Origin: Acidobacteriota bacterium
GTDB taxonomy: Bacteria; Acidobacteriota; UBA6911
Length of the DNA: 64,000 nt
NCBI GenBank assembly: GCA_963664705.1
Contig: OY761556.1
Coordinates: 3,552,001 to 3,616,000, forward strand
Direction: 5' to 3'
In this document: positions 1 through 11,860 of the stretch, one piece after another
Layout: each line of letters opens with the position of its first letter
Numbering within the stretch: the first letter of the stretch is position 1
Program-made: the position numbers and the translations under genes
Notes under the pieces: generated by a model
What the model saw: the letters and a program-made list of their open reading frames with translations, nothing else
Databases searched by the model: none
Told to the model about the DNA's origin: nothing

Positions 1-1668
1 ATCGATTTGAACGGTCTTGTTGTACTGCAAACCGCCAATACTGTAGTAATTGTTGTTGGTACCGCCGGTAACGATAATTTCCATAGCGTTCGGCTGGAAC
101 CAGGGCTGACCGCCCGGGGAATCCGGAGCCATCAGGAATTTCTTGAAGTCATCAACAGAGTTGTACCCTGCAGTCTTCACGAAATTTGCGATTGGCGGGC
201 TAAGAATGGCTGTGGCACCAAAAAGGAATGGAGCCTGGGTTTTGAAAATGTCCTTGATGATCTGCGGGAAATTCATTTCTTTTCCCCAGTTGTTCGCGCG
301 CCAGTTCTTTGCGGAGAGAACGCCCCAGCCTTCAAACAGACTGACCACGTTTTCGTTCTTCTTGAAGCCTTTTCGAACCGAAAGCGGTTCCCACGGAGAT
401 TCCTTCTCATTCTCGCCAAACACAATGTTAATGGCGTTCATCGGATTCCCTACGGTCCCCATGTAGGTCGTTCCGACTTTGCCGCCATTGCCAAGGTTGA
501 TGGACAGAATGCTCCATGCTCTTCCGATTGTCGTATTGGCATGAGCGTATGGCCCCATGGCGCCAATACCATAATTGATCCCGATCTCATCGCGGATAGG
601 GCCATTGATGACCAGCGCACCGACAAACGAATTATCGGAAACGGAAATGGCTTCCTTTCCGGTAGCGGCCACAGCCAGCAGCAACGGCATATATTCCGGC
701 TTGCAGCCAGCCATAACAGCGTTTACGGCAACGTCTTTTACCGTATATGTCCAGTCTTCGAAATAAGTACCGGTTTGAGTCGGCGACATTTTGCCAACCA
801 TTTCATCCGGACGGTGACTGGTTCCCTTCAGCATGTCATCGACTTTCGCGGCCGTCGGCAGAACGATCGGCATGAAGTCGGTCATGCGCTTATCCATGAA
901 CATCTTCTGCAGATTGTCCGGCGTATCCGTAAAGGTCGCCGGTCCCTTGGTACGATTAATCTCACCGGTCTTCTTTTCATCGGCGGTCAAGGGCTTGGTA
1001 AATTTGTCGACAATTTCCTGCATGACCGGCTTGCCGGTGATCGGGTTGTTGCCGTTAATCACATCACGTCGCAACTGTTCGCGCGTTTTTCCCCACACCG
1101 GGCCACGAACCCACTGGGTCCGGAGGCCGGGGAGCCCGTCATTGCGTGCTTTTTCAGTTTCCTGTTCGTAGAATTCGGAAAGAACGAGAGGGACAGCAGG
1201 CAGATTCATCTTGGTTTCGAAATTCACGGAGTGGCCGACAACTGCCGGCGCACACTGGCTTCAATGGCCCATCCCGATGATGATCCCATTGGCCTTCTCT
1301 TTCATCTCGGCCCACAGCTTCGGATCTTCCGAGTCAAATCCACCGCCACCTTTTCTTTTGAAAACAACGGTGGTTTTGGGGTAATTGGCTTTAAACCAAT
1401 CCACCATTTCAAGCAGGAGATTATCCCCTCCCACAAACCCGTCATCAACGATGTATAAGGTCTTGCCGTCCAGGGTATCGAGGCGCGGCGCCATCGTCTT
1501 TAACTTTATCGGAGGCGGAGTTCCCAACGGATTTAATACCGTAATTTTAGCCTCTGCCGGCTCCGCCTTTTTCGCCGGTGCGGCTTTTTTTGCTTGCGCA
1601 TAGCCTATCTGCAGACAGCAAAACAGGCCTATGCACAGAAACGCAACTATTACTGTGCGCAATTTCAT
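1..1668 (-). CDS. UGSC-family selenoprotein with signal peptide (in-frame TGA = Sec at 1261-1263; 3' end runs off the window)
   Basis: ATG at 1668 follows GGAGG. Signal peptide MKLRTVIVAFLCIGLFCCLQIGYAQA, then APRLDTLDGKTLYIVD. The frame reads GMGH-TGA-SQCAPAV and stays open for 420 codons to position 1. Downstream motifs TDFMPIVLPT, AVNAVMAGCKPEY, ANTTIGRA and ENEKESPW are typical of UGSC-associated proteins. Confidence 0.85.
1231..1255 (-). promoter_or_regulatory. Putative bacterial SECIS hairpin
   Basis: After the UGA the mRNA reads AGCCA GUG UGC GCCGGC AGUU GUCGGC CAC. This gives a 6-bp upper stem, a G in loop position 2 and a loop 17 nt from the UGA, fitting the bacterial SECIS model. 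Confidence 0.65.
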
Positions 1669-1783
1669 GCCTGACTTTCCTCCGTACTTTGAACAATACA
1701 AGGGTTTACCTTTAGAAATACGCCCCTACCATATCATGAAACGGGGTCAATAAAATGGGGGCGGACCCGTTTTGTTGAATTTG

Positions 1784-1809
1784 TGTAATAATTGGCAGGT
1801 TCGTGCGTC
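1784..1809 (+). promoter_or_regulatory. Putative ECF-type (autoregulatory) promoter
   Basis: TGTAAT-N16-CGTC about 20 bp upstream of the ECF sigma start; resembles typical ECF -35/-10 motifs. Confidence 0.4.
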
Positions 1810-1831
1810 ATGTGGGTTGAGGCAACCGGAT

Positions 1832-2350
1832 ATGGAAACAGCCATTAACCTGATGAGCACACAATCATTCGCTATGACTTCGTCAACGGAATTTGCCGAT
1901 CTTTATCAACGCTACTACGCCGCAGTGTATCGAACTGCCCTGCGGGTAACCGGCAATACGGCAGATGCCGAAGACGCCCTCCAAACCGTTTTTCTCCGTG
2001 TACTGAACCAGGGGAGCCAGCATGAATCGGCTCACAACCCGGAAGCATATTTTCGGAGGGCTGCAACAAATGCCGCCCTGGATCTGCTCCGGCGAAGGAT
2101 CTCCCATGGAGAGATTCAGCTCGACACAGCATCCTCCATTGCAGCCAGGGAAAGCTCCGCATTTCTGAAGGAGCAACTCAGGCGCGCCATTGCGTCCCTG
2201 GATCCGTCGGATGCCATTATGTTTTTGCTGCGCTATGTCGAGGGAATGACAAACGGGGAACTCGCGGAAATGTTCGGTCAGGACAAAAATGCAATTGCGG
2301 TTCGGCTTCACCGTATCCGGCAAAATCTACAGACTGAGATGGAGCGATAA
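1832..2350 (+). CDS. RNA polymerase ECF sigma-70 factor
   Basis: Region 2 (ADAEDALQTVFLRV, AYFRRAATNAALDLLRRR) and region 4 HTH (EGMTNGELAEMFG...VRLHRIRQNL). Start codon uncertain (1832/1853/1874). Confidence 0.93.
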   Translation: METAINLMSTQSFAMTSSTEFADLYQRYYAAVYRTALRVTGNTADAEDALQTVFLRVLNQGSQHESAHNPEAYFRRAATNAALDLLRRRISHGEIQLDTASSIAARESSAFLKEQLRRAIASLDPSDAIMFLLRYVEGMTNGELAEMFGQDKNAIAVRLHRIRQNLQTEMER

Positions 2351-2362
2351 CGGAGGTCGGCA

Positions 2363-4807
2363 ATGTCAGAAGATCGCTTGGAACAAGCCCTACAGGCAAT
2401 CAAAAATGAAGATGTAAGCCCTGAACAGCTCGCCGATGCGGCAGCCCGAGTGCGAAAGAACCTGGAAGATCCGTCCAGTGCACTGTGTTCAGAATTTCAA
2501 TCCGAAATCCACGACTACCTTGACGGACAGCTTGCCGCCAATCGGCGGATGTTATTGGAAGACCATCTGGGACGCTGCCCTGCCTGCAGAGCACGACTTG
2601 CCTCCCTCAAGGGAGCAGGGAATGTTGTTCCCATGCCTGCACGGCAGAAACCCGGTTGGCAGAAATGGGCAAAATGGGCCATCGCCGCCGCCGTATTACT
2701 GATGGCGGTCTATGTCGGACGCGACAATCTCGACAATCTGATGGCTCCCGGCGGCCCCAGGGCCACCGTAGCATCATTGCAGGGCTCTCTCTACCTGGTG
2801 CCCAGCGGTATGCTGCAGGTAGGCGCGCCGATTGCCGAGAACGCCGTGGTCCGCACCGGGCCTGGAACCCATGCCGTGCTTCGGCTGAGAGACGGATCTC
2901 GAGTTGAAATCAATGAAGGAACCGAGCTTTCCGTTCACGCGGCCTGGAGCGGCCAATCCATTCGCCTTCAGCGCGGTGACGTCATCGTGCAGGCCGCCAA
3001 GCAGCATCGCGGCCACCTCCGCGTGGAGACTCGCGACTCGGTCGCTTCGGTGAAGGGAACCATATTCGCCGTATCGACAGGCTTCGGCGGCACGCTGGTT
3101 TCGGTGGTTGAAGGCTCCGTTGCCGTGGCACAACCCAACACCAATGTGCTCCTCACGCCCGGACAACAGGCTGCATCCAACCCGGCGTTGGCAAGTTCCG
3201 TTCAGGATGCGGTTTCATGGAGTCCGGACGCACAGAACTACATTGCAGTAATGGCCTCGCTTGCGCACATTCAAAAACAGATGGCCTCCATGCCGTCGCC
3301 CTTGCTAAAAACGCAGTCAAACCTGCTTCAGTACATGCCTCCAAACATGATCGTGTATGGAGCCGTTCCGAACCTGAGCAACACGATCAACCAGGCTGTA
3401 GCGCTTGCAGAACAGCAATCGGCTGAGAATCCCGCTTTCAGTCAGTGGTGGAATGCCGGGGCTGGACAGGAACTGAAAAAACTCATCGGCAAGATCCAGT
3501 CGGTCACTCCGCTCCTCGGCGATGAGATCGTGTACGGAATCTGTGTAAATGGATCAACCGTGCCGGTCCTGATTGCGGAAGTACGCTCGGGAAAGCGCGA
3601 GGAGCTGAGCAACATATTAAACAGCCTTAATACCAGCGGAGGCGACGCGCTTCCATACAAGCTGAACGATAGCCTGCTGGCAGCGTCGAATTCAGCCGTC
3701 AACCTGGAATGGCTGATCACCCACATGGGCCAGGGCAGCGGCACGCCTTTTGCACAGGAAATCGCATCGCGCTATATGGACGGAGCGGCATGGCTTCTTG
3801 GAATCGACATGGAGTCGATTTTCTCAGAAAGCTTCACCGGCGGGAACAAAGCGCTGGCTTCGCAAAAGGTCAAGCATCTCTTCCTGGAACAGCGAAATGC
3901 TTCAGGAATTGAGGAGAATGAAATCGCTGTTTCCTTCAACGGGCCGCGCGAAGGCATCGCGTCATTTCTGGCAGGCACGGGGTCAGGAGGTGCAGCCGAA
4001 TATCTTTCAAGCGACTGCATCGCCGCCTTATACATGTCCACGCGAGAACCTCAACAGTTGTTCCAGGAACTGACGGCGCAGCTGACGAAAATATCACCAA
4101 CATTCCAGGGCGAATTTGCGGCAGCCCAGGCCAGAATGGGCATAGACTTTTCCAATGACCTGGCACGCGCACTGGGAACGGAATCGGCTATTTCACTGAA
4201 CGGATTATCCACCAGCGGGCCAGTGTGGACTATGGCGGGCATCGTAAACGATCAGGCCACGCTGGAGGCAACGATACGCAAGCTTGCAACCTTCATGAAC
4301 GCCGAACTGGAAAGGGCGGGCAGAACCGAACGCATACTCATTGAGCAGGAAATCGTGGATGGACGCACGTGGACGACCCTGAAACCCTCTGATCAGCCGG
4401 TCTCCGTCACATGGACCTACGACAGAGGCTACATTGTGGCCGGATCCAGCAGAGGCGTGGCTGCGAAAGCGATCGCAAACCGCAACGGCGGATCGTCGCT
4501 GCCGTGGTCACCCGCATTCCGACAGCAGTTGCCGGTCTCAGTCGGGCTGCATCCTTCAGGATTTGCCTGGTTGAACACGAGCGGAGCATTCCAGGGACTC
4601 GAGGCATTGATCCCCAATCCATTGATTCAGAAAATGGTGGCCGAGCGGGATCCGATTCTTGTGGCATTCAGCGGATTAACGGAACAAATTCGCGCCGTCA
4701 GCCGTACTCGATTAACGGGAATGGTAATGAATATGTTGCTACTGAGGAGTCTGGACCCCGCACACACGGGTTCGACTCAGGCAAATGCACAATCGGGTAT
4801 GCTCTAA
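2363..4807 (+). CDS. Anti-sigma factor: zf-HC2 (ZAS) + TM + FecR domain + large C-terminal periplasmic domain
   Basis: DYLDGQL...HLGRCPAC (HxxxCxxC), TM WAIAAAVLLMAVYV, FecR motifs LRDGSRVEINEGTEL and VKGTIFAV...VSVVEGSVAV. GGAGG RBS, 12 bp after the sigma gene. Confidence 0.88.
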   Translation: MSEDRLEQALQAIKNEDVSPEQLADAAARVRKNLEDPSSALCSEFQSEIHDYLDGQLAANRRMLLEDHLGRCPACRARLASLKGAGNVVPMPARQKPGWQKWAKWAIAAAVLLMAVYVGRDNLDNLMAPGGPRATVASLQGSLYLVPSGMLQVGAPIAENAVVRTGPGTHAVLRLRDGSRVEINEGTELSVHAAWSGQSIRLQRGDVIVQAAKQHRGHLRVETRDSVASVKGTIFAVSTGFGGTLVSVVEGSVAVAQPNTNVLLTPGQQAASNPALASSVQDAVSWSPDAQNYIAVMASLAHIQKQMASMPSPLLKTQSNLLQYMPPNMIVYGAVPNLSNTINQAVALAEQQSAENPAFSQWWNAGAGQELKKLIGKIQSVTPLLGDEIVYGICVNGSTVPVLIAEVRSGKREELSNILNSLNTSGGDALPYKLNDSLLAASNSAVNLEWLITHMGQGSGTPFAQEIASRYMDGAAWLLGIDMESIFSESFTGGNKALASQKVKHLFLEQRNASGIEENEIAVSFNGPREGIASFLAGTGSGGAAEYLSSDCIAALYMSTREPQQLFQELTAQLTKISPTFQGEFAAAQARMGIDFSNDLARALGTESAISLNGLSTSGPVWTMAGIVNDQATLEATIRKLATFMNAELERAGRTERILIEQEIVDGRTWTTLKPSDQPVSVTWTYDRGYIVAGSSRGVAAKAIANRNGGSSLPWSPAFRQQLPVSVGLHPSGFAWLNTSGAFQGLEALIPNPLIQKMVAERDPILVAFSGLTEQIRAVSRTRLTGMVMNMLLLRSLDPAHTGSTQANAQSGML

Positions 4808-5773
4808 ATGACTTCTGCAGTTGTTGAACTGGAAAATCTGAGAGTGAAACTCGGGCGGCGGGAAGTGCTGAAGGACATTTCCTGCCGCCTCGGCATTTCC
4901 GGACAGGGTAAAGCCATCGGACTCCTGGGACCTAACGGAGCCGGCAAATCCACGTTAATTCTGACCATGCTCGGCTTTCATAAGCCGGCAGCAGGAAGTA
5001 TTCGAGTACTCGGATTCGATTCTCGTCTCCAGATGCACGATGTCAGAACGCGGATCGGTTACATGCCCGAGACGGATTCGTTCATCGCAAACCTGACCGC
5101 CGTCTCCTTTCTACGCCTCATGGGTGAACTCTCCGGGCTTCCCGGCAAAGTTGCATTGGAGAAAGCGCACGAAGCTCTGTTCCACGTCGGTCTGGGTGAG
5201 GCCCGCTACCGCGAACTGAAAACCTATTCCCTGGGAATGAAGCAAATGGCCAAGCTGGCGCAGGCTATCGTGCACGGACCCGAACTGCTGATTCTCGATG
5301 AGCCTACCAATGGGCTCGATCCATCCGCCCGCCAACGCATGCTCCGGCTTGTTCGTGAGATGAGGGAGGAACAGGGCATGAACATCCTGCTTTGCTCCCA
5401 TCTGCTGCGTGACGTCGAACAGGTCTGCGATGAAGTAGTGATCATGAAGGATGGAATGATCGTGCACGAATGCAATCTCGAGGAAGAGCGCCGCTCAAAC
5501 AAGTCTTTCGTCGAACTTGAAGTCTACGGCAATGATGACAACCTCCGGAACACCCTCCCCGAAATCGGTGCGGAAGGCGTTACGGAAGGAAGCGGGCGCT
5601 GGCGCATCGTTCTTCCGCCAGCGGTGGAGATCCAGGCGTTGTGGAACCTGCTTGGCCGCCAGGACCTCTCGGTAAGAAAGCTTACCTACCGCAGGGATAC
5701 GCTGGAGGAAATCTTTCTGAAAGCCATGGGGCATATACAGCACACCCCCGGGGAAAACGCAGCCGCAAGATAG
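4808..5773 (+). CDS. ABC transporter ATP-binding protein
   Basis: Walker A GPNGAGKST, signature YSLGMKQ, Walker B LILDEP, H-loop SHLL. Confidence 0.95.
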   Translation: MTSAVVELENLRVKLGRREVLKDISCRLGISGQGKAIGLLGPNGAGKSTLILTMLGFHKPAAGSIRVLGFDSRLQMHDVRTRIGYMPETDSFIANLTAVSFLRLMGELSGLPGKVALEKAHEALFHVGLGEARYRELKTYSLGMKQMAKLAQAIVHGPELLILDEPTNGLDPSARQRMLRLVREMREEQGMNILLCSHLLRDVEQVCDEVVIMKDGMIVHECNLEEERRSNKSFVELEVYGNDDNLRNTLPEIGAEGVTEGSGRWRIVLPPAVEIQALWNLLGRQDLSVRKLTYRRDTLEEIFLKAMGHIQHTPGENAAAR

Positions 5774-5817
5774 GAGCGCGGTGCTGCAAGCAGCCGCGCC
5801 GGGGGGCAGGAGGGATA

Positions 5818-6678
5818 ATGGCCGTTTATAAACGAGGATACCAGCGATACCAGGGGCCAACCAATTCACACTGGTCCCGCTTCATGGTATTGCCTCGTTT
5901 CGCATGGCAACGGGTCTTTCAGCAGCGTCTTGTCGTTCTCCTCATGGTGGTAGCCATGGTCTGGCCGCTGCTGTGCGCCATATTCATTTACCTCACCAAC
6001 CATGCCGAGCTGCTGAAAAGCGCCGCCAGGCAATTTCAGGACTTCATCCAGGTCAACGGCAACTTCTTCCTGGTTTTCATGTATGTCCAATCCGGTTTTG
6101 CCGTCCTGCTTGCCGCGATGACAGGGCCGGGACTGATTGCGCCCGATCTTGCAAACAACGCCCTGCCGCTTTATTTCAGTCGACCGCTCAGCCGAATGGA
6201 CTATGCACTGGCCCGGCTCTTAACCTTAGGCGGCCTTCTATCGCTGGTCACCATCGTACCAGGATTACTGCTCCTCGGGATGCAAGTGGGGATTGCAGGG
6301 CTGGACTGGCTCTTCTCCAATTGGAGACTTGGCCTGGGACTGGTAGTCGGTTTTGCATTGTGGATTCTGCTGGTCAGCCTGGTTGCAATGGCCAGCTCCG
6401 CATATGCTCGAATGAAAGCGGTCTCCGGTGGACTGGTGCTTGGATTCTTCTTCATCCTGAGCGGTCTATCCCAAATGATCAACAGCATATTCCGCGTCAC
6501 CTGGGGAAACGGGCTCAGCCCGCTCTGGGTATCCAGGCGGATCTGGTATGCGCTTTTTAGTGTCGAGCCCAAACCGGGTCCCGGTGTAGCGGCATGCATG
6601 TCCATGATTATTGCCATCATCCTTCTGCTGATTATTGTCATTGAACGGAAACTCCGTCCGGTAGAGGTGGTTTCGTGA
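5818..6678 (+). CDS. ABC-2 type transporter permease
   Basis: About 6 TM segments; motif LPLYFSRPLSRMDY; ATG at 5818 after GGAGGG. Confidence 0.88.
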   Translation: MAVYKRGYQRYQGPTNSHWSRFMVLPRFAWQRVFQQRLVVLLMVVAMVWPLLCAIFIYLTNHAELLKSAARQFQDFIQVNGNFFLVFMYVQSGFAVLLAAMTGPGLIAPDLANNALPLYFSRPLSRMDYALARLLTLGGLLSLVTIVPGLLLLGMQVGIAGLDWLFSNWRLGLGLVVGFALWILLVSLVAMASSAYARMKAVSGGLVLGFFFILSGLSQMINSIFRVTWGNGLSPLWVSRRIWYALFSVEPKPGPGVAACMSMIIAIILLLIIVIERKLRPVEVVS

Positions 6679-7607
6679 CCCAGCCCATGGTGGTATTTGA
6701 CGAGGTTTCGAAGTTCTACGGGGATGTCCTGGGCGTCAATCACGTGTCATTGAACATCCCTCCCGGCATCACCAGCCTTGTGGGACCCAACGGTTCTGGC
6801 AAAACGACTCTGATGAACCTGATGACCGGGCTTATACATCCCGATGACGGCTCCATACTGGTACGAGGGCTTTCGCCGCAGGATCCCGAACACCTGATGC
6901 GCATTACCGGATATGCGACTCAATATGACGCAGCTCCTCGCTGGGCAACGGGCTTCAGCTTCATTACCACAGGACTGCTTCTTTACGGATACGCGCGAGC
7001 CGAAGCGGAAGAAAAGGCCTGGAAGGCGCTGGAGCGGCTGGGCCTGACTGAGGCCGCACACAGGAAAATGGCCGCATATTCCAAAGGGATGCGGCAGCGA
7101 GTCCGGCTCGCCCAGGCTATCGCTCACGAACCGGACATACTCATTCTGGATGAACCGCTCAATGGACTGGATCCCTTGGTGCGCGCAGAGACGATTGCGC
7201 TTTTCCATGCCTGGGCAGCCCAGGGCCGCCACGTGATTCTTTCCAGCCACGTCCTTCAGGAAGTGGACGTCATCAGCAACCAGGTCGTACTGATCTCCAG
7301 CGGCATGATCGTGGCCGAAGGCAAGATTCGCGACGTGCGGGAAGAGATCCAGGAACACCCGAGCCAATACCTCGTCCGTTGCCGGGAGGCATCGCGTGTG
7401 GCCGCACTGCTGTTCAATGAAGATCACATCACCGAGGTACGCCTGAACGAGGATCGCCTGGGCTTGATGGTCATGACACGTGATCGCCAGCAGTTCTCGC
7501 GCGCCATCGGCCGGATTGCCCTGGATGGGCACACGATTGACAGCGTGATTCCCGCGGATGAAAACGTCGACGCGCTATACGAATACCTGATTGGAGAGGG
7601 ACGCTAG
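6675..7607 (+). CDS. ABC transporter ATP-binding protein
   Basis: GPNGSGKTT, YSKGMRQR, ILILDEP, SSH; GTGA overlap with the upstream stop. Confidence 0.95.
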   Translation: MTQPMVVFDEVSKFYGDVLGVNHVSLNIPPGITSLVGPNGSGKTTLMNLMTGLIHPDDGSILVRGLSPQDPEHLMRITGYATQYDAAPRWATGFSFITTGLLLYGYARAEAEEKAWKALERLGLTEAAHRKMAAYSKGMRQRVRLAQAIAHEPDILILDEPLNGLDPLVRAETIALFHAWAAQGRHVILSSHVLQEVDVISNQVVLISSGMIVAEGKIRDVREEIQEHPSQYLVRCREASRVAALLFNEDHITEVRLNEDRLGLMVMTRDRQQFSRAIGRIALDGHTIDSVIPADENVDALYEYLIGEGR

Positions 7608-9142
7608 TGGAAAACCGGTCCTGGATAAAGCAGGCATGGACAATTACCAAAATCGAGCTGAGGCGCGCTTTCTTTTCAAAGCGCGGGTTCTGGGTCTATG
7701 GTCTTGCACTGATACCAGCCCTGGCATTTTTTGCGCACGGAATCCAGTTGAAGATACGGCGGCAAAGCCTTTCCTCAAAAACGGGGCTCGTACAGCCCGC
7801 CCAGCTGGATAGCATTCGCGAAGGGGAAACGGCCGAAGCCATTATTGCTCGAATCGGCAAGGCATCATGGGATCAGGAATGGCCCAAATACAACAAGATC
7901 GATGTTCAGGGGAAGAACGGCGGCATTACTTCGCACAAGGTTGAGCCGGTTGTGGAGGCCCGATTCGTCAGGCTGAATGTGAGGGTACCATCCTACAACG
8001 GGGATCCAGCCGCACGAATTTATGAACTCGAAGTGTATGGCGACAGCGACTCCGTCAACCTGGCTCTCAACAAGCCGGCTACGGGCAGCACTCCCTGCAG
8101 CCCCTCCGAAGGCCCGGAGAAGGCTTTCAACGGCAGCGTCAAAGGCGGGGTCAGTGATCGCTGGTGCTCCAACGCGCCTCGAAAGTATCTCCAGGTGGAC
8201 CTGGGAACCGTCACCAAAATCAAACGCATTGTTGTCAAACACGCCAGTGCGGGCGGCGAGCGCGAGGAACTGGACTCGTCCCTATTCGACCTCCAGGCCA
8301 GCGTTGATGAACGCAAGTTTCTTACAATCGTAAACAGGGCGTCCACGCGTTTCATCGATGAAGTAGTCCAGCACCGTACCCTCAGCTACTTTGACGGTCG
8401 CCGCGAAGCAACGCTGGATTTCGATGAAGGAAAGCTCGTGTCCAGGCGGGTGCATCCGCTCATGGATTTCGAAGAAGACCGCGCCGTCTTTGCCGGTATT
8501 TTCCAATATTTCTATCTGCGCCTGGCCATTTTCTTCGGATGCCTCGGCATCTTCATGAATCTGTTTCGGGGCGAGATACTCGACCACACATTGCATTTCT
8601 GGTTCCTTGCACCGGCTCGCCGCACGGTGCTGCTCCTGGGCAAATATGGAGCCGGATTGATCGCTTCCACCATAATCTTTGGCGGAGGCACTCTTCTGTG
8701 TTTTACGATACTGCTCCAGATGCATGACCCGGTGGAAGTCCATGCCTTTTGGCAGACCGCCGGCGTCAGCCATGCGTTCTGGTATGTCGCAGCCGCTGTG
8801 CTGGGATGCCTGGGCTATGGCAGCGTCTTCCTCGCGGCAGGTCTGTTGATGAAGAATCCCATTATTCCGGCCGCGGTCCTGGTGGTTTGGGAGGCTATCA
8901 ACGGGTTTCTCCCCGAAATTCTCCAGAAATTGAGCGTGCTGTATTACCTCCAGTGTTTGTGCCCCGTCCCGGCACCGATGGACTCCGACATGCCCGGGCT
9001 GCTGAAACTACTGCTCAACCCGGCAGCCCCGGTTTCCCGTACGGGAGCCATATTCGGAATTCTCTCGCTTACAGCCATCGTTCTGTGGATAGCAAGCGTT
9101 GCCATTCGCCGCATGGAGGTATCCTACTCCACGGAAGCATAA
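7607..9142 (+). CDS. ABC-2 type permease with inserted F5/8 type C (discoidin/CBM32) domain
   Basis: N-terminal ELRRAF plus TM; C-terminal permease half (GEILDHTLHFWFLAPARR..LLLGKY). Extracytoplasmic loop has ARFVRLNV..ARIYELEVYG and NLALNKPATGS..RWCS..YLQVDLG. Confidence 0.85.
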   Translation: MENRSWIKQAWTITKIELRRAFFSKRGFWVYGLALIPALAFFAHGIQLKIRRQSLSSKTGLVQPAQLDSIREGETAEAIIARIGKASWDQEWPKYNKIDVQGKNGGITSHKVEPVVEARFVRLNVRVPSYNGDPAARIYELEVYGDSDSVNLALNKPATGSTPCSPSEGPEKAFNGSVKGGVSDRWCSNAPRKYLQVDLGTVTKIKRIVVKHASAGGEREELDSSLFDLQASVDERKFLTIVNRASTRFIDEVVQHRTLSYFDGRREATLDFDEGKLVSRRVHPLMDFEEDRAVFAGIFQYFYLRLAIFFGCLGIFMNLFRGEILDHTLHFWFLAPARRTVLLLGKYGAGLIASTIIFGGGTLLCFTILLQMHDPVEVHAFWQTAGVSHAFWYVAAAVLGCLGYGSVFLAAGLLMKNPIIPAAVLVVWEAINGFLPEILQKLSVLYYLQCLCPVPAPMDSDMPGLLKLLLNPAAPVSRTGAIFGILSLTAIVLWIASVAIRRMEVSYSTEA

Positions 9143-9175: not shown

Positions 9176-11050
9176 CTAATAGCTCAAGCCATAGCCATAC
9201 GGGAAGAGCGGGTCATATTTCGTTTTAGGAACATGGATATTGAGTGGCAATTGTTCCATGGACTTTGGCCAGGTAAACGATAGCTTTCCAGTCGGCTTGT
9301 AATCACCGAACAGCACATCCGTAATACCCTGCCCTTCCGTTCCGGGAAGAAAGGCTGCGACGAATGCATCTGCTCGAGGCAGCGCGTCCTTGATGATCAT
9401 CGGTCGGCCGGAAATGAGAACCACAACAACCGGGATACCCGCCTTCTTTGCATTCTCGATGGCCTTCACGTCGTCGGCATCCAGCGCTAGATCGGACCGG
9501 TCTCCAACGCCCTCGGCATAGGGGCGTTCGCCCACCACCACCACTGCCAGAGAAGCACCCTTCGCCCCGGTTCCATCAGCGGAAAAAGTGATCTTGGTTC
9601 GGTTTGAAACCGCAGATTTGATCGCCTGCAGCACCGTTGTCCCTCCGGGCGTCACGGCGCCGCTTTTCCCCTGCCAGAGCACGGTCCACCCGCCACACTG
9701 ATTCCCGATATCATCCGCATTTTTTCCCGCAACGTGGATTCGGGCGACTGTCTTGGAAATCGGCAGTGTTTTTTGATCGTTTTTCAGCAAAACCAGCGAT
9801 TTTCGCACCGCTTCTCTAGCTACTGCGCGGTGCTCGGCCGATCCGAAGTTTTTGTGGAGTTTCCGGTCTGCCATTGGAGACCGGCTCTTGTCCATCAGCC
9901 CCATTGCGAATTTGACACGCAGAATTCGAGCAACGGCATCATCGATTCTCGACATCGGAATCTTGCCTTCCCCGACAAGCGTCTTCAGGTTGTTGAAGAA
10001 ATCCCGATATTCTGTCGGCACCATCGCCATATCCATCCCGGCGTTGATCGATATCGCAATCGCTCCCTTCGGATCTTTGGGATTGATCTGGTTGATCGCG
10101 TTATAGTCCGAAATAAGAAACCCTTCGAATCCCAATTCTTCCTTCAGGATTTCAGTCAAAAGTCGCTTGCTGGCGGAACAGCGAACTCCATTCCATGTGC
10201 TATAAGAAGGCATGATGGTGCCAACTCCCGACCGGATCGCGCGGATATAACCGGGCAAATGGATGCGGCGCAATGTAGCTTCGTCGGCCTTTGTATCGCC
10301 TTGATCCAGCCACAATTCCGGTTTTGCATTCGAAGGCATGCCCGGACGCGGTGCGTTGCTGGCGGACGTTCCGCCGTCGCCGATAAAGTGCTTCGCGCAT
10401 GCCAGGATCGAGAGCGGATCGCTCAAATCGGTTCCCTGCAGGCCGCGAACGGCGGCTTCACCCAATTCCTGCACGACATTGGGGTCTTCAGAAAATCCCT
10501 CGTAGGTTCTGCCCCAGCGGATATCCTGTGGAGCGGCTACACAGGGGCTGAAGGTCCACTGTATCCCGGTAGCTCTCACTTCCTCCGCGGTGATACGCCC
10601 GATTTTCTCGACCAGAGCTTTATCGCGCGTGCAACCGAGCGCGATATTGTGAGGAAATAGCACGGCGCCTTGAACATTGCTATGTCCGTGTACGGCATCG
10701 ATCCCATACAAGATCGGAATTGCCAGTCTTGTTTTCAGCGCCTCGTTTTGGGCTTTATCGTACAGGTCTGTCCAGGCCTTCAGCGTGTTGCCTTCGGCAG
10801 GATCGGAATCGCCCCCGCTGAGAACCGATCCGATGAAGTACTTTTGCATATCGCCGGGATTCTTTAAAACCGGTCCCTGCTCCGGTTGAGTCATCTGGCC
10901 GATCTTTTCTTCCAGAGTCATTTTCGAAAGCAGTTCTTTTACCTGAGGATCAAAGGAAGACAATCGTTTTGAAACCGGCGGGACCGAACCCACCTGAACG
11001 CCTACTAGTAGAAGAATGCTGATCGCAGCTGCAGGAACATATGATTTCAT
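9176..11050 (-). CDS. Glycoside hydrolase family 3 beta-glucosidase / beta-glucan exohydrolase, secreted
   Basis: [36 protein letters not shown], nucleophile motif [13 protein letters not shown]; N-terminal signal peptide. Confidence 0.93.
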
Positions 11051-11075
11051 ATTGTGATTCCCCTTGAAATTTACG

Positions 11076-11136
11076 ATTTGCAATTTACGGTTGACGATTG
11101 AATGAGCTTTTCAATCGCCAACCGCACATTGCAAAT
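11076..11136. repeat. Long imperfect inverted repeat with ACGATT sub-repeats
   Basis: ATTTGCAAT/ATTGCAAAT outer arms and CGGTTGACGATTGAA/TTCAATCGCCAACCG inner arms, between two co-directional genes. Confidence 0.7.
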
Positions 11137-11140
11137 TATC

Positions 11141-11860
11141 CTACTCACATATGCCGGCGAGAGCTTCGTAGTTGGAATGCAGTTCGTTAACGGCGGCCTT
11201 GATTTTCTGTTCTGAATTTGTCTGGAGCGCTGCTTCGAGCCCATCCACCGACGCAGACAGCTTCTTTCTTGCCGCCTGGAATTCCGGATCTTTTTGCTTA
11301 AACCGTTCCGGGATCTTCGCGGTGTTCAGCGCAACCATCTTCTGCTTCATCTCCGCCGCGGATGCACGGATCTTCTGAACGTCGTAGGCCGGCAGATAGT
11401 GATGGAACAGCATGTAGAGAGAAGCATGGAAATCGTCCAGTTCTTTCATAGCCGGTCGTGTCACTCGCATCAACGCTTCGAATTGGCTGTGGAGCTTTTC
11501 GGCGACAGACAGCAACCTGGCATCATCTTTAGCGGTAGCCGCCGATTTGTAATCCGCTCCTATTGCCTGCAGTTTTTTTACGCCTTCATCCCAGGCAGCC
11601 TTTTTCTCTCTCAGGATCCCGGGAAGCTTGGCGGCAGCAACATCCGCAATTCCCTTCTCTACCCCTGGTGCCAGTTGCTGAAGCAGCGCCGTATCCTTTT
11701 TCGGCCATGCCTCATGCCAGATTTTGGCAATCACTTCGTGGAACGCATGCAACGCCGGCACATCGGCCACAGCATCCGCCGGCTTTTCCTGTGCAAAACC
11801 GGAGAGACCGGATATGCTGAATGTGAACATCAAAGCTGCGGCGATCATCAGTTTGCGCAT
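11141..11860 (-). CDS. Secreted alpha-helical His-rich hypothetical protein with two-fold internal repeat
   Basis: Signal peptide. Repeats LHAFHEVIAKIWH..EKLHSQFEAL and LDDFHASLYMLFHH..NELHSNYEAL. GAGGAG RBS. Confidence 0.8.
   Translation of the reverse strand: MRKLMIAAALMFTFSISGLSGFAQEKPADAVADVPALHAFHEVIAKIWHEAWPKKDTALLQQLAPGVEKGIADVAAAKLPGILREKKAAWDEGVKKLQAIGADYKSAATAKDDARLLSVAEKLHSQFEALMRVTRPAMKELDDFHASLYMLFHHYLPAYDVQKIRASAAEMKQKMVALNTAKIPERFKQKDPEFQAARKKLSASVDGLEAALQTNSEQKIKAAVNELHSNYEALAGICE

Follow-up and report, generated by a model that had tools for sequence, protein, structure and literature searches.

In systems of the FecI/FecR/FecA type (ECF239, ECF240, ECF242 and ECF243; PupI/PupR, FoxI/FoxR), an ECF sigma factor is followed by a single-pass FecR anti-sigma factor bearing a Gly-Thr pair, and FecR-type proteins are described as undergoing self-cleavage at Gly-Thr and processing by Prc and RseP (PMC9249621). 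FecR-domain anti-sigma factors without a TonB-dependent receptor are also on record: group descriptions in the ECF catalogue (PMC7826278) state this explicitly for ECF267 and Leptospira ECF242, and those of ECF46 and ECF229 give FecR anti-sigma factors and mention no such receptor. With these four precedents catalogued, the novelty that the initial annotation of the present locus implied for a FecR anti-sigma factor lacking a TonB transducer was overstated. ECF groups tied to ABC transporters (ECF227, ECF230 and ECF232) are listed in the supplement to the same catalogue.

The locus lies within a window of 64,000 nucleotides (the whole stretch of DNA that was analysed) from an Acidobacteriota bacterium. 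It shares with FecI/FecR/FecA the order of sigma factor and single-pass anti-sigma factor, the FecR juxtamembrane beta domain, the Gly-Thr pair and, likely, proteolytic release. By contrast, the cytoplasmic part of its anti-sigma factor is a predicted zinc-binding anti-sigma domain (ZAS), and beyond the FecR domain comes a further stretch of about 500 aa that is DUF3352-like; no TonB-dependent transducer is co-transcribed, and the predicted output is an inner-membrane ABC-2 cassette.

Operon organization and conservation

Open reading frame calls and Pfam place six genes on the forward strand, as initially annotated:

1784..1810, +, predicted autoregulated ECF promoter (-35 TGTAATAA at 1784-1791, 13-nt spacer, -10 GCGTCA at 1805-1810)
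1832..2350, +, ECF sigma factor, 172 aa (Pfam Sigma70_r2 and r4_2; TIGR02937 above cut-off)
2363..4807, +, anti-sigma factor, 814 aa: ZAS, one TM helix, FecR juxtamembrane domain, DUF3352-like region (Pfam, model, hydropathy)
4808..5773, +, ABC ATPase 1, 321 aa, DrrA/GldA-like (Pfam ABC_tran; catalytic motifs intact)
5818..6678, +, ABC-2 permease 1, 286 aa, six predicted TM segments (weak ABC2_membrane match)
6675..7607, +, ABC ATPase 2, 310 aa (Pfam ABC_tran; catalytic motifs intact)
7607..9142, +, ABC-2 permease 2, 511 aa, periplasmic insert after TM1 (weak ABC2_membrane match)
7910..8335, +, circularly permuted F5/8 type C (discoidin) module in permease 2 (Pfam/profile match)
9176-11083, -, GH3 gene, neighbour of the operon (Pfam)

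The junctions, previously called mostly abutting or overlapping, are so in three of five cases (TAA directly followed by ATG at 4807/4808, GTGA at 6675-6678 and TAGTG at 7605-7609, all exact), the other two being gaps of 12 nt (sigma/anti-sigma) and 44 nt (ATPase 1/permease 1). The sigma start, ATG at 1832, is the start common to relatives.

Acidobacteriota are abundant and poorly understood. A search for related loci with a single protein as query returned one locus only; across the sampled genomes the operon is present in about one fifth (56/301), and in 55 of these 56 permease 1 is encoded downstream of the anti-sigma gene, on the same strand and no more than 8 kb away; the lone exception is a locus split over two contigs. 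The genomes and loci counted include kin and are not independent, so that such counts overstate support. Gene order is invariant across 53 fetched loci, 49 of which are complete. Judged by sequence comparison, the six-gene operon is a conserved Acidobacteriota unit, and the 55/56 linkage and the operon's own promoter support what had been proposed: a dedicated, conserved, TonB-independent ECF system with the ABC cassette as its output.

Comparison with described ECF groups

The locus matches none of the written group descriptions searched from the 157-group catalogue (Casas-Pastor 2021, PMC7826278). ECF46 (FecR and Laminin_G_3), ECF229 and ECF267 (FecR and TPR) resemble it in their FecR stalk, in a distal domain that is swapped or not described, and in having no FecA-like partner. 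However, their hosts are given as Planctomycetes/Proteobacteria/Verrucomicrobia, Leptospira and Sorangium/Chondromyces rather than Acidobacteriota; their descriptions contain no ZAS, DUF3352 or four-gene ABC cassette, all of which are present here; and the promoters of ECF46 and ECF267 are described as not conserved, whereas the present one is conserved. Laminin_G_3, the ECF46 trait, is absent: the distal region matched DUF3352 in the window protein and in four of five orthologues scanned, the fifth having no distal match.

ECF232 is similar in its predicted promoter (TGTT(AAT)/CGT, compared with GTTAAT or TGTAAT/CGT here), its single-pass anti-sigma factor and its linked ABC transporters, and both the TGTT(AAT)/CGT promoter and a linked ABC transporter were found at the present locus. 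It differs in being described from Firmicutes only, with DUF4367 or WD40 repeats in the anti-sigma factor instead of zf-HC2, FecR and DUF3352. ECF268, ECF206, ECF231 and ECF277 have in common with it Acidobacteria as hosts and a one-TM zinc-finger anti-sigma factor at +1, but the promoters given for ECF268 (GGGAAC at -35, GGTGT at -10) and ECF231 (TGTAACCTT) both differ from that found here, and the descriptions of acidobacterial ZAS groups list other sensor domains (RskA-like, HEAT) and no FecR domain or ABC-2 cassette. A literature search on Acidobacteria FecR anti-sigma factors, ABC-2 and extracytoplasmic function systems yielded no description of this system among the papers listed, and one confined to papers since 2021 yielded none.

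Promoter and predicted regulon

The ECF-like promoter noted ahead of the operon was borne out: TGTAATAA, 13/14 nt and NCGT are conserved upstream of orthologous sigma genes beyond chance, the conserved variants being TGTAATAA or GTTAATAA with CGT. The motif lies upstream of the sigma gene in 57 loci, which are also the training set of the matrix, and in 47 of these it exceeds the 99th percentile of shuffled upstream sequence; in held-out loci the same level was exceeded in 13 of 19. The site at 1784-1810, itself part of the training set, has the top matrix score in the whole genome, where 17 sites reach at least 17 bits, the majority of them within or opposite genes. In 41 genomes, the operon's own sites aside, extra matches to the strict motif, those in close relatives among them, were about as frequent as a reversed-pattern control. 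The regulon thus appears to be tiny, and it is predicted to comprise hardly more than the operon itself. So sharply defined a promoter makes a reporter assay buildable at once.

Architecture of the anti-sigma factor

Pfam confirms the cytoplasmic zinc finger and FecR domain initially assigned (zf-HC2 at residues 42-76, FecR at 162-253). The parts of the protein are:

2486..2587, +, predicted zinc-binding anti-sigma motif C42 / H68xxxC72xxC75 (zf-HC2; motif conservation)
2675..2719, +, predicted TM helix, about residues 105-119 (hydropathy; model helix 101-127)
2762..3232, +, FecR-like periplasmic beta domain, about residues 134-290 (structural match)
3056-3061, +, Gly232-Thr233 pair in the FecR-like domain (conservation)
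3296..4753, +, DUF3352-like region, about residues 312-797 (Pfam, model, HHalign)

C42, H68, C72 and C75 are each conserved in 84 of 85 aligned homologues, and the ZAS region gives weak matches to RsiW and ChrR chains. The TM helix was missed by a 19-residue hydropathy scan at a threshold of 1.6; the hydropathy peak occupies the same position in 31 of 31 rows shown. The model of the FecR-like domain matches PupR and BDI_1681 (Z 16.6-17.5), and G232 and T233 are present in 84/85 and 83/85 rows of anti-sigma homologues, respectively. From its place in the domain, we infer that this pair is equivalent to FecR G181-T182.

A whole-protein Pfam scan at E 0.01 gave no match to DUF4974 (STN-like) after the FecR domain, and the anti-sigma model aligns to PupR over residues 111-251 only. 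As the initial annotation had it, no TonB-dependent transducer is present in the operon or among the scanned window neighbours (Pfam); none with a signalling domain occurs among 87 flanking proteins of related loci, and in the organism's own genome no signalling TonB-dependent transporter was found, both STN matches being secretins. One locus (G293), unique among those inspected, carries a TonB-dependent-receptor-like gene without an STN match inside the operon, on the opposite strand.

Cell-surface signalling in trans, with an unlinked TonB-dependent transducer acting on the FecR domain, would be consistent with the retained FecR juxtamembrane fold and Gly-Thr pair and with the G293 gene. It is extremely unlikely, given the lack of an STN-bearing TonB-dependent transporter among the matches in the own genome, the restricted match to PupR, and the single, STN-less occurrence at G293.

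The DUF3352-like region and its stand-alone relatives

The periplasmic part of about 500 aa is indeed a large domain, but not wholly unassigned as first described: DUF3352 (PF11832) matches at residues 543-773 with 27.8 bits against a cut-off of 26.8. In the model, the DUF3352-like region probably consists of two alpha/beta repeats; this is a structural impression, and by profile the two-repeat reading is not significant (E 0.1; the repeat-2 HMM is found in repeat 1 only at iE 0.5-5). Each of the four structure searches ranked TP0453 first (Foldseek E 1.3e-3 and 5.6e-5; VIA Z 7.5, r.m.s.d. 5.8 Å, 165 aligned, and Z 10.4, r.m.s.d. 5.7 Å, 206 aligned), although the match is loose (TM about 0.40, r.m.s.d. 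5.7-9 Å, 7-9% identity). According to a review, TP0453 inserts into membranes and has been proposed to carry lipids (PMC5421087); a shared fold by itself shows no function. The likeness to TP0453, and to the carrier-transporter logic of LprG-Rv1410 and LolA-LolCDE, is that of a membrane-anchored alpha/beta protein beside a transporter, whereas TP0453 itself is a single-domain lipoprotein with no signalling role and <10% identity to the DUF3352-like region. LolA, LprG and LppX are absent among the fold matches listed, though they may still be kin. PsbP/Mog1-type sensor domains are also similar to the shared core (Z 5.4-5.6).

What is new here is the homology, detected by profile comparison, of the second half of the DUF3352-like region to a stand-alone neighbour of sigma-less cassettes: residues 540-772 of the anti-sigma factor align with a stand-alone protein of about 330 aa (HHalign 94.3%, E 1e-7, 201 columns), four control pairings giving 0.1-1.3%. 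Such stand-alone proteins are anchored by a TM segment or lipobox and lie ≤6.5 kb from a sigma-less four-gene ABC cassette in 40 of 87 genomes (30/77 without the 10 profile-building genomes). The pairs belong to 18 families and are co-directional in 25, convergent in 10 and divergent in 5 cases. The remaining 47 of the 87 sigma-less cassettes have no listed stand-alone neighbour, the stand-alone family is common (156/301 genomes) and often away from a cassette, and the own genome's copy (G000:C1:6018542) adjoins none. The closest two-repeat relative seen outside anti-sigma factors is a DUF3352-pilin-like fusion (locus L070; E 2e-26 and 4e-44); its 19-kb locus contains no ABC cassette of this kind, which points to the DUF3352-like domain as a reusable module. 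No mention of DUF3352 was found in a literature search for it.

Because the second half of its DUF3352-like region is homologous to the stand-alone cassette neighbour, the anti-sigma factor looks like a fusion in which a ZAS-FecR signalling stalk carries the periplasmic partner of the exporter. The earlier proposal of a C-terminal domain acting together with the transporter thus gains support, at the level of sequence, from the homologue beside sigma-less cassettes, and the link between the two provides a testable handle on DUF3352. On a plainer reading, the DUF3352-like region would act alone, in the manner of RseB/MucB or the PknH sensor domain, and respond to a general envelope signal such as membrane defects or proteins that are misfolded or in the wrong place; the cassette would be output only, without contact to the anti-sigma factor. 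The repeat core does resemble PknH, LpqN, MucB and RseB domains (Z 3.4-5.4), DUF3352-like domains also occur away from the cassette, and ABC-linked ECF groups are already catalogued (ECF227, ECF230, ECF232). Yet this leaves unexplained why a homologue of the domain lies beside sigma-less cassettes in so many genomes and in three orientations, and we consider it somewhat unlikely. Were it to hold, the operon would still represent an apparently undescribed ECF group.

The ABC cassette

Staphylococcal PmtABCD, like the present cassette, comprises two ABC-2 ATPase/permease pairs in one operon; it serves phenol-soluble modulins in a monoderm host, is not known to have a periplasmic partner and is under the control of a GntR repressor. 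By contrast, the cassette here is accompanied by a candidate periplasmic partner and an ECF sigma/anti-sigma pair, and sequence similarity is marginal (E 0.03). PmtCD is described as clearing amphipathic peptides from the membrane and protecting against LL-37 (PMC9974410). Catalytic motifs are intact: Walker A, signature and H-loop are conserved in 40/40 ORFs for each ATPase query, and the Walker B pattern in 40/40 and 35/40. NCBIfam PmtA/PmtC scores are far below cut-off, and GldA, likewise far below, is the second-best model for both ATPases. The only solved sequences that the permease-1 profile matches are four PmtD chains, at a level below significance (E 0.03-0.37); for permease 2, the profile instead has a weak match to CcmB (E 0.077). 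Downstream of some sigma-less cassettes comes a TPR protein.

The GldA scores, the DUF3352-pilin-like fusion that shares both halves, and these TPR proteins would also fit a secretion or assembly accessory. In that case the cassette, comparable to GldAFG or to a transporter associated with pilins, would put surface proteins or lipoproteins in place or mature them, and the occupancy of a chaperone-like DUF3352 region would be sensed. This is quite improbable, as the 87 proteins flanking the sigma-linked operons include no pilin, secretin or conserved cargo.

Proposed mechanism

Gene set and order, promoter, ZAS-TM-FecR-DUF3352 architecture, intact ATPase motifs, stand-alone homology and the late F5/8 gain are properties of the sequences and their comparison. 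With a little less than even confidence, we favour a scheme in which the sigma factor transcribes its own operon and the anti-sigma factor senses hydrophobic, membrane-associated cargo via its fused exporter partner, so that envelope load would lead to more exporter. The cytoplasmic ZAS would keep the sigma factor inactive, and the two ATPase/permease pairs would be type V (ABC-2) exporters that, by analogy with PmtCD, may rid the inner membrane of amphipathic peptides, lipids or lipoproteins. On the periplasmic face, the TP0453-like DUF3352 region could bind cargo or transporter and change shape with load; the FecR domain, perhaps pre-cut at Gly232-Thr233, would be destabilised, and site-1/site-2 proteolysis would free the sigma factor to fire the TGTAATAA/CGT promoter, in a feedback loop with the pump as main output. 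It is further conceivable, if unlikely, that the exporter's periplasmic cargo carrier was duplicated and grafted onto a ZAS-FecR anti-sigma factor, the transporter replacing the TonB-dependent transducer as input in what would be anti-sigma flux sensing.

The ABC transporter of BceAB-BceRS takes part in regulating its own expression by way of a signalling protein in the membrane; there, the signalling protein is a histidine kinase and the transporter belongs to another ABC class, whereas here an anti-sigma factor and an ABC-2 exporter would be involved. In a literature search on flux sensing, the term was absent among the matches listed. Should the anti-sigma factor sense how heavily its own exporter is loaded, FecR stalks would accept inner-membrane as well as outer-membrane input, and transporter-coupled flux sensing would extend from histidine kinases to anti-sigma factors. 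DUF3352-like proteins would then have their first function: to partner, in the periplasm, an uncharacterised four-gene exporter that is widespread in diderm bacteria.

The permease-2 insert

The insert that follows TM1 of permease 2 is periplasmic and lineage-specific; its host domain, which weakly resembles BamE, has an F5/8 module nested within it. Glycan signalling or export via this carbohydrate-binding module, as initially suggested, is not supported: the module is present in 4 and absent in 49 of 53 full-length permease-2 orthologues, and its carriers are nested late in the permease-2 tree (a quick tree), indicating a late gain. The convergent GH3 gene, previously noted next door, is present here, yet none of 87 flanking proteins from related loci is a GH3, and a GH3 link was rejected. 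The permease 2 of G216 has a second, unrelated insert in the same host domain, with no Pfam match.

A system that handles glycan, with the F5/8 module binding carbohydrate and GH3 adjoining, could draw on the module's presence in this permease, on a loop decorated twice (here and in G216) and on the pairing of FecR with a lectin-like domain in the description of ECF46. The late and sparse distribution of the module, the absence of GH3 from the flanking proteins and the G216 insert's lack of a Pfam match make it very unlikely; at best, the glycan reading applies to one family. In the window protein the module is circularly permuted, residues 102-138 corresponding to positions 89-124 and residues 158-243 to positions 2-82 of the F5_F8_type_C profile; the N-terminal piece alone gives E 0.24, and the whole insert and two orthologues each show both stretches.

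Conservation of the operon

The six-gene operon is a conserved unit. Re-inspection of ORFs, junctions and domains reproduced the gene set of the initial annotation in full, including the convergent GH3 gene. The window spans G000:C1:3552001-3616000, where G000 denotes its own genome, and relatives of its anti-sigma carry the source labels Acidobacteriota or Acidobacteria. Among 301 sampled genomes of the phylum (completeness at least 90%), the anti-sigma was matched in 56, its own genome counted in (E 1e-15 or better), and in 55 of these permease 1 is encoded downstream in the same orientation, no more than 8 kb away; the linkage of the sigma/anti-sigma pair to the ABC genes, which might have proved rare, is thus nearly constant. 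The sole exception, genome G277, has the operon split between two contig ends, with one half on each. One close permease occurs without an anti-sigma (genome G111), where the first ATPase is truncated and adjoins an ORF whose translation reads as insertion-sequence-like. Gene order was invariant over the 53 loci inspected (33 + 20), of which 49 are complete and four stop short where a contig or the fetched stretch ends. Searching 1.84 billion cluster representatives with a profile gave 1,466 anti-sigma matches at E 1e-30 or better, and nearly all of the 150 listed out of these were full length.

Unrelated genes are occasionally interposed within the operon in some genomes. Between anti-sigma and ATPase 1, seven fetched loci (L092, L093, L094, L095, L097, L062 and L063) contain a beta-lactamase-family serine hydrolase, DUF4386, small membrane proteins or lipoproteins, with one small-membrane-protein family found in three loci.

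Architecture of the anti-sigma

Four features were assigned in the anti-sigma (all + strand):
Residues 42–76, zf-HC2 (Pfam)
Residues about 105–119, predicted TM helix
Residues 162–253, FecR (Pfam)
Residues 543–773, DUF3352 (match barely above the cut-off)

An AlphaFold2 model (85 sequences, mean pLDDT 79.5, pTM 0.57) comprises a helical ZAS, the TM helix, a beta domain (134–271) and then about 480 residues of alpha/beta structure, which in the model looks like two similar halves. The FecR part of the model overlays PupR 111–251 and BDI_1681 at Z 16.6–17.5, and in the alignment it retains a Gly-Thr pair resembling the self-cleavage site of FecR-type proteins, as reviewed in the accessible text of PMC9249621. 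For the DUF3352-like region, the lipoprotein TP0453 was the best match in four structure searches: Foldseek with the full model (E 1.3e-3), Foldseek with the second half (model pLDDT 87; E 5.6e-5, TM 0.40), VIA against 48,161 chains (Z 7.5, r.m.s.d. 5.8 Å, 165 residues; next match Z 5.6) and a further search (Z 10.4, r.m.s.d. 5.7 Å over 206 residues spanning 320–790). These model-based matches are suggestive of a TP0453-like fold; according to the accessible part of a review (PMC5421087), TP0453 itself is a lipoprotein of alpha/beta/alpha architecture whose amphipathic helices insert into membranes and which has been proposed to carry lipids.

The reported absence of an adjacent TonB-dependent transducer was borne out: no TonB-dependent receptor occurs among the 87 flanking proteins inspected (no more than four from each locus, picked from a list of 102), and one locus, in genome G293, has a receptor-like gene within the operon, on the opposite strand and without an STN match. 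The two STN matches in the own genome are both secretins. FecR-type systems without such a transducer are already known: in its accessible text, PMC7826278 states explicitly that the receptor is absent from ECF267 and Leptospira ECF242, and mentions none for ECF46 and ECF229. None of the 18 mentions of Acidobacteria in that text describes a combination of ZAS, FecR and ABC-2 (compared by written group descriptions), and DUF3352 is absent from the examined text of its supplement. All parts of the operon are of known kinds, and their combination is, as far as we found, not previously described; a literature search, beyond which most subscription papers lay, returned no published account of it. 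Two further FecR-domain proteins of the own genome (G000:C1:1506119-1508284, +, and 5959086-5960024, −) have signal-peptide-like N termini and lack a ZAS.

Promoter and predicted regulon

Across loci, the region upstream of sigma shares TGTAATAA or GTTAATAA, a 13–14-nt spacer and then NCGT(T/C). In the window this corresponds to:
1784–1810, + strand, predicted promoter with the conserved motif, 22 nt upstream of the start codon (ATG, 1832)

The matrix was trained on 57 loci after removal of four duplicates, 27 of them close kin that include the window; 47 of the 57 score above the 99th percentile of shuffles (12.2 bits), as do 13 of 19 loci outside the training set. The window site is the highest-scoring match in its own genome, and in relatives the motif in its strict form turns up elsewhere roughly as often as the reversed control does. 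We infer autoregulation, with the operon as the main output. A second good match, intergenic and outside the window (G000:C1:1683718-1683743, −), precedes an ABC ATPase gene by 161 nt, and next comes a gene for a 1,191-residue ABC-2 permease fusion, which we take to be an M1-peptidase fusion; judged by its motif, this is a possible second target of the sigma factor. Two divergent UGSC-family genes (PF24696, borderline matches) occupy window positions 1–1701 (−), and similar pairs occur at G000:C1:1683910-1685613 and near 6016567-6017889.

The exporter and the permease 2 insert

Both ATPases have intact catalytic motifs. Against solved sequences, the permease 1 profile matched only PmtD (E 0.03–0.37), of a staphylococcal exporter, and the permease 2 profile matched CcmB weakly. 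According to the accessible text of PMC9974410, PmtAB is a transporter distinct from PmtCD, and the latter exports amphipathic peptides out of the membrane and protects against LL-37; by analogy with this separation, the cassette may therefore be two homodimeric pumps, not one heterodimer. Two weak, independent resemblances suggest that the cargo may be hydrophobic and membrane-associated.

The initial annotation connected the carbohydrate-binding module of permease 2 with a possible glycan or envelope signal. Of 53 full-length permease 2 sequences, 44 are bare (about 260–300 residues), four carry a small, weakly BamE-like domain alone (Pfam E 0.006–0.12 where matched), four (the window, L031, L050 and L051) have an F5/8 module nested in that domain, and one (L057:11654-13366, genome G216) has a different insert of about 200 residues, without a Pfam match, at the same BamE-like host site. 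When the tree is built only on the membrane part, the nine insert-bearing sequences cluster (SH-aLRT 94) and the F5/8 set is nested inside (93). The F5/8 module, which is circularly permuted, is by this tree a late addition and cannot define the ancestral function of the system. The GH3 enzyme likewise falls away as a partner, with none among the 87 flanking proteins. Also in the window, 11141–11860 (−) encodes a secreted, His-rich helical protein of 239 residues with only a faint cytochrome b562 match.

A stand-alone relative of the anti-sigma region

A second, distant class of permease 1 relatives occurs in 87 of the 301 genomes. The 24 such loci fetched keep the ATPase-permease-ATPase-permease order without a sigma or anti-sigma match, and a quick tree separates their permeases from the sigma-linked set (branch support SH-aLRT 98, with a single long-branch row falling outside). 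In ten of the 24, the cassette adjoins a gene for a protein of 320–350 residues whose N terminus bears a TM helix or lipobox. The alignment of these ten proteins, two of which weakly match DUF3352, matched anti-sigma residues 540–772 at 94.3% (HHalign; E 1e-7, 201 columns); a repeat agreed, and control pairings gave 0.1–1.3%. A gene of this type lies within 6.5 kb of at least 40 of the 87 sigma-less cassettes, or 30 of 77 once the ten used for the profile are excluded, spanning 18 families and three orientations; among the matches listed, 17 of the 87 genomes have a copy elsewhere and 30 have none. Rough arithmetic puts the chance expectation for such adjacency under one, although kin are not independent. 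Because a homologous stand-alone gene adjoins sigma-less cassettes, the DUF3352-like domain type is, as judged from homology, a companion of this exporter both free and fused to the anti-sigma.

We tentatively favor, at somewhat below even probability, an autoregulated envelope-clearing loop: the DUF3352-like region would stem from a partner protein of the exporter and sense cargo or the state of the transporter, proteolysis of the anti-sigma would then free sigma, and sigma would drive its own operon. The main alternative, the same output without coupling to the transporter, we consider somewhat less likely. The association with the exporter appears not to be exclusive, because the stand-alone family is present in 156 of the 301 genomes (a tally that takes in the unpublished G082), the free single-repeat homologue of the own genome (G000:C1:6018542-6019498, +; N-terminal hydrophobic segment) does not adjoin an ABC cassette, and genome G216 encodes a DUF3352–pilin-like fusion. 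This last, two-half protein (L070:6788-9163) strongly matches both halves of the anti-sigma region, is their closest relative outside anti-sigmas and ends in a TM helix and domain that, from their motif, are presumably type IV pilin-like.

Within the window's own family, sigma-less cassettes (L043–L045, from G030, G034 and G032, and L046, from G035) are followed by a conserved secreted TPR protein of about 400 residues, and two of these cassettes adjoin nuo genes.
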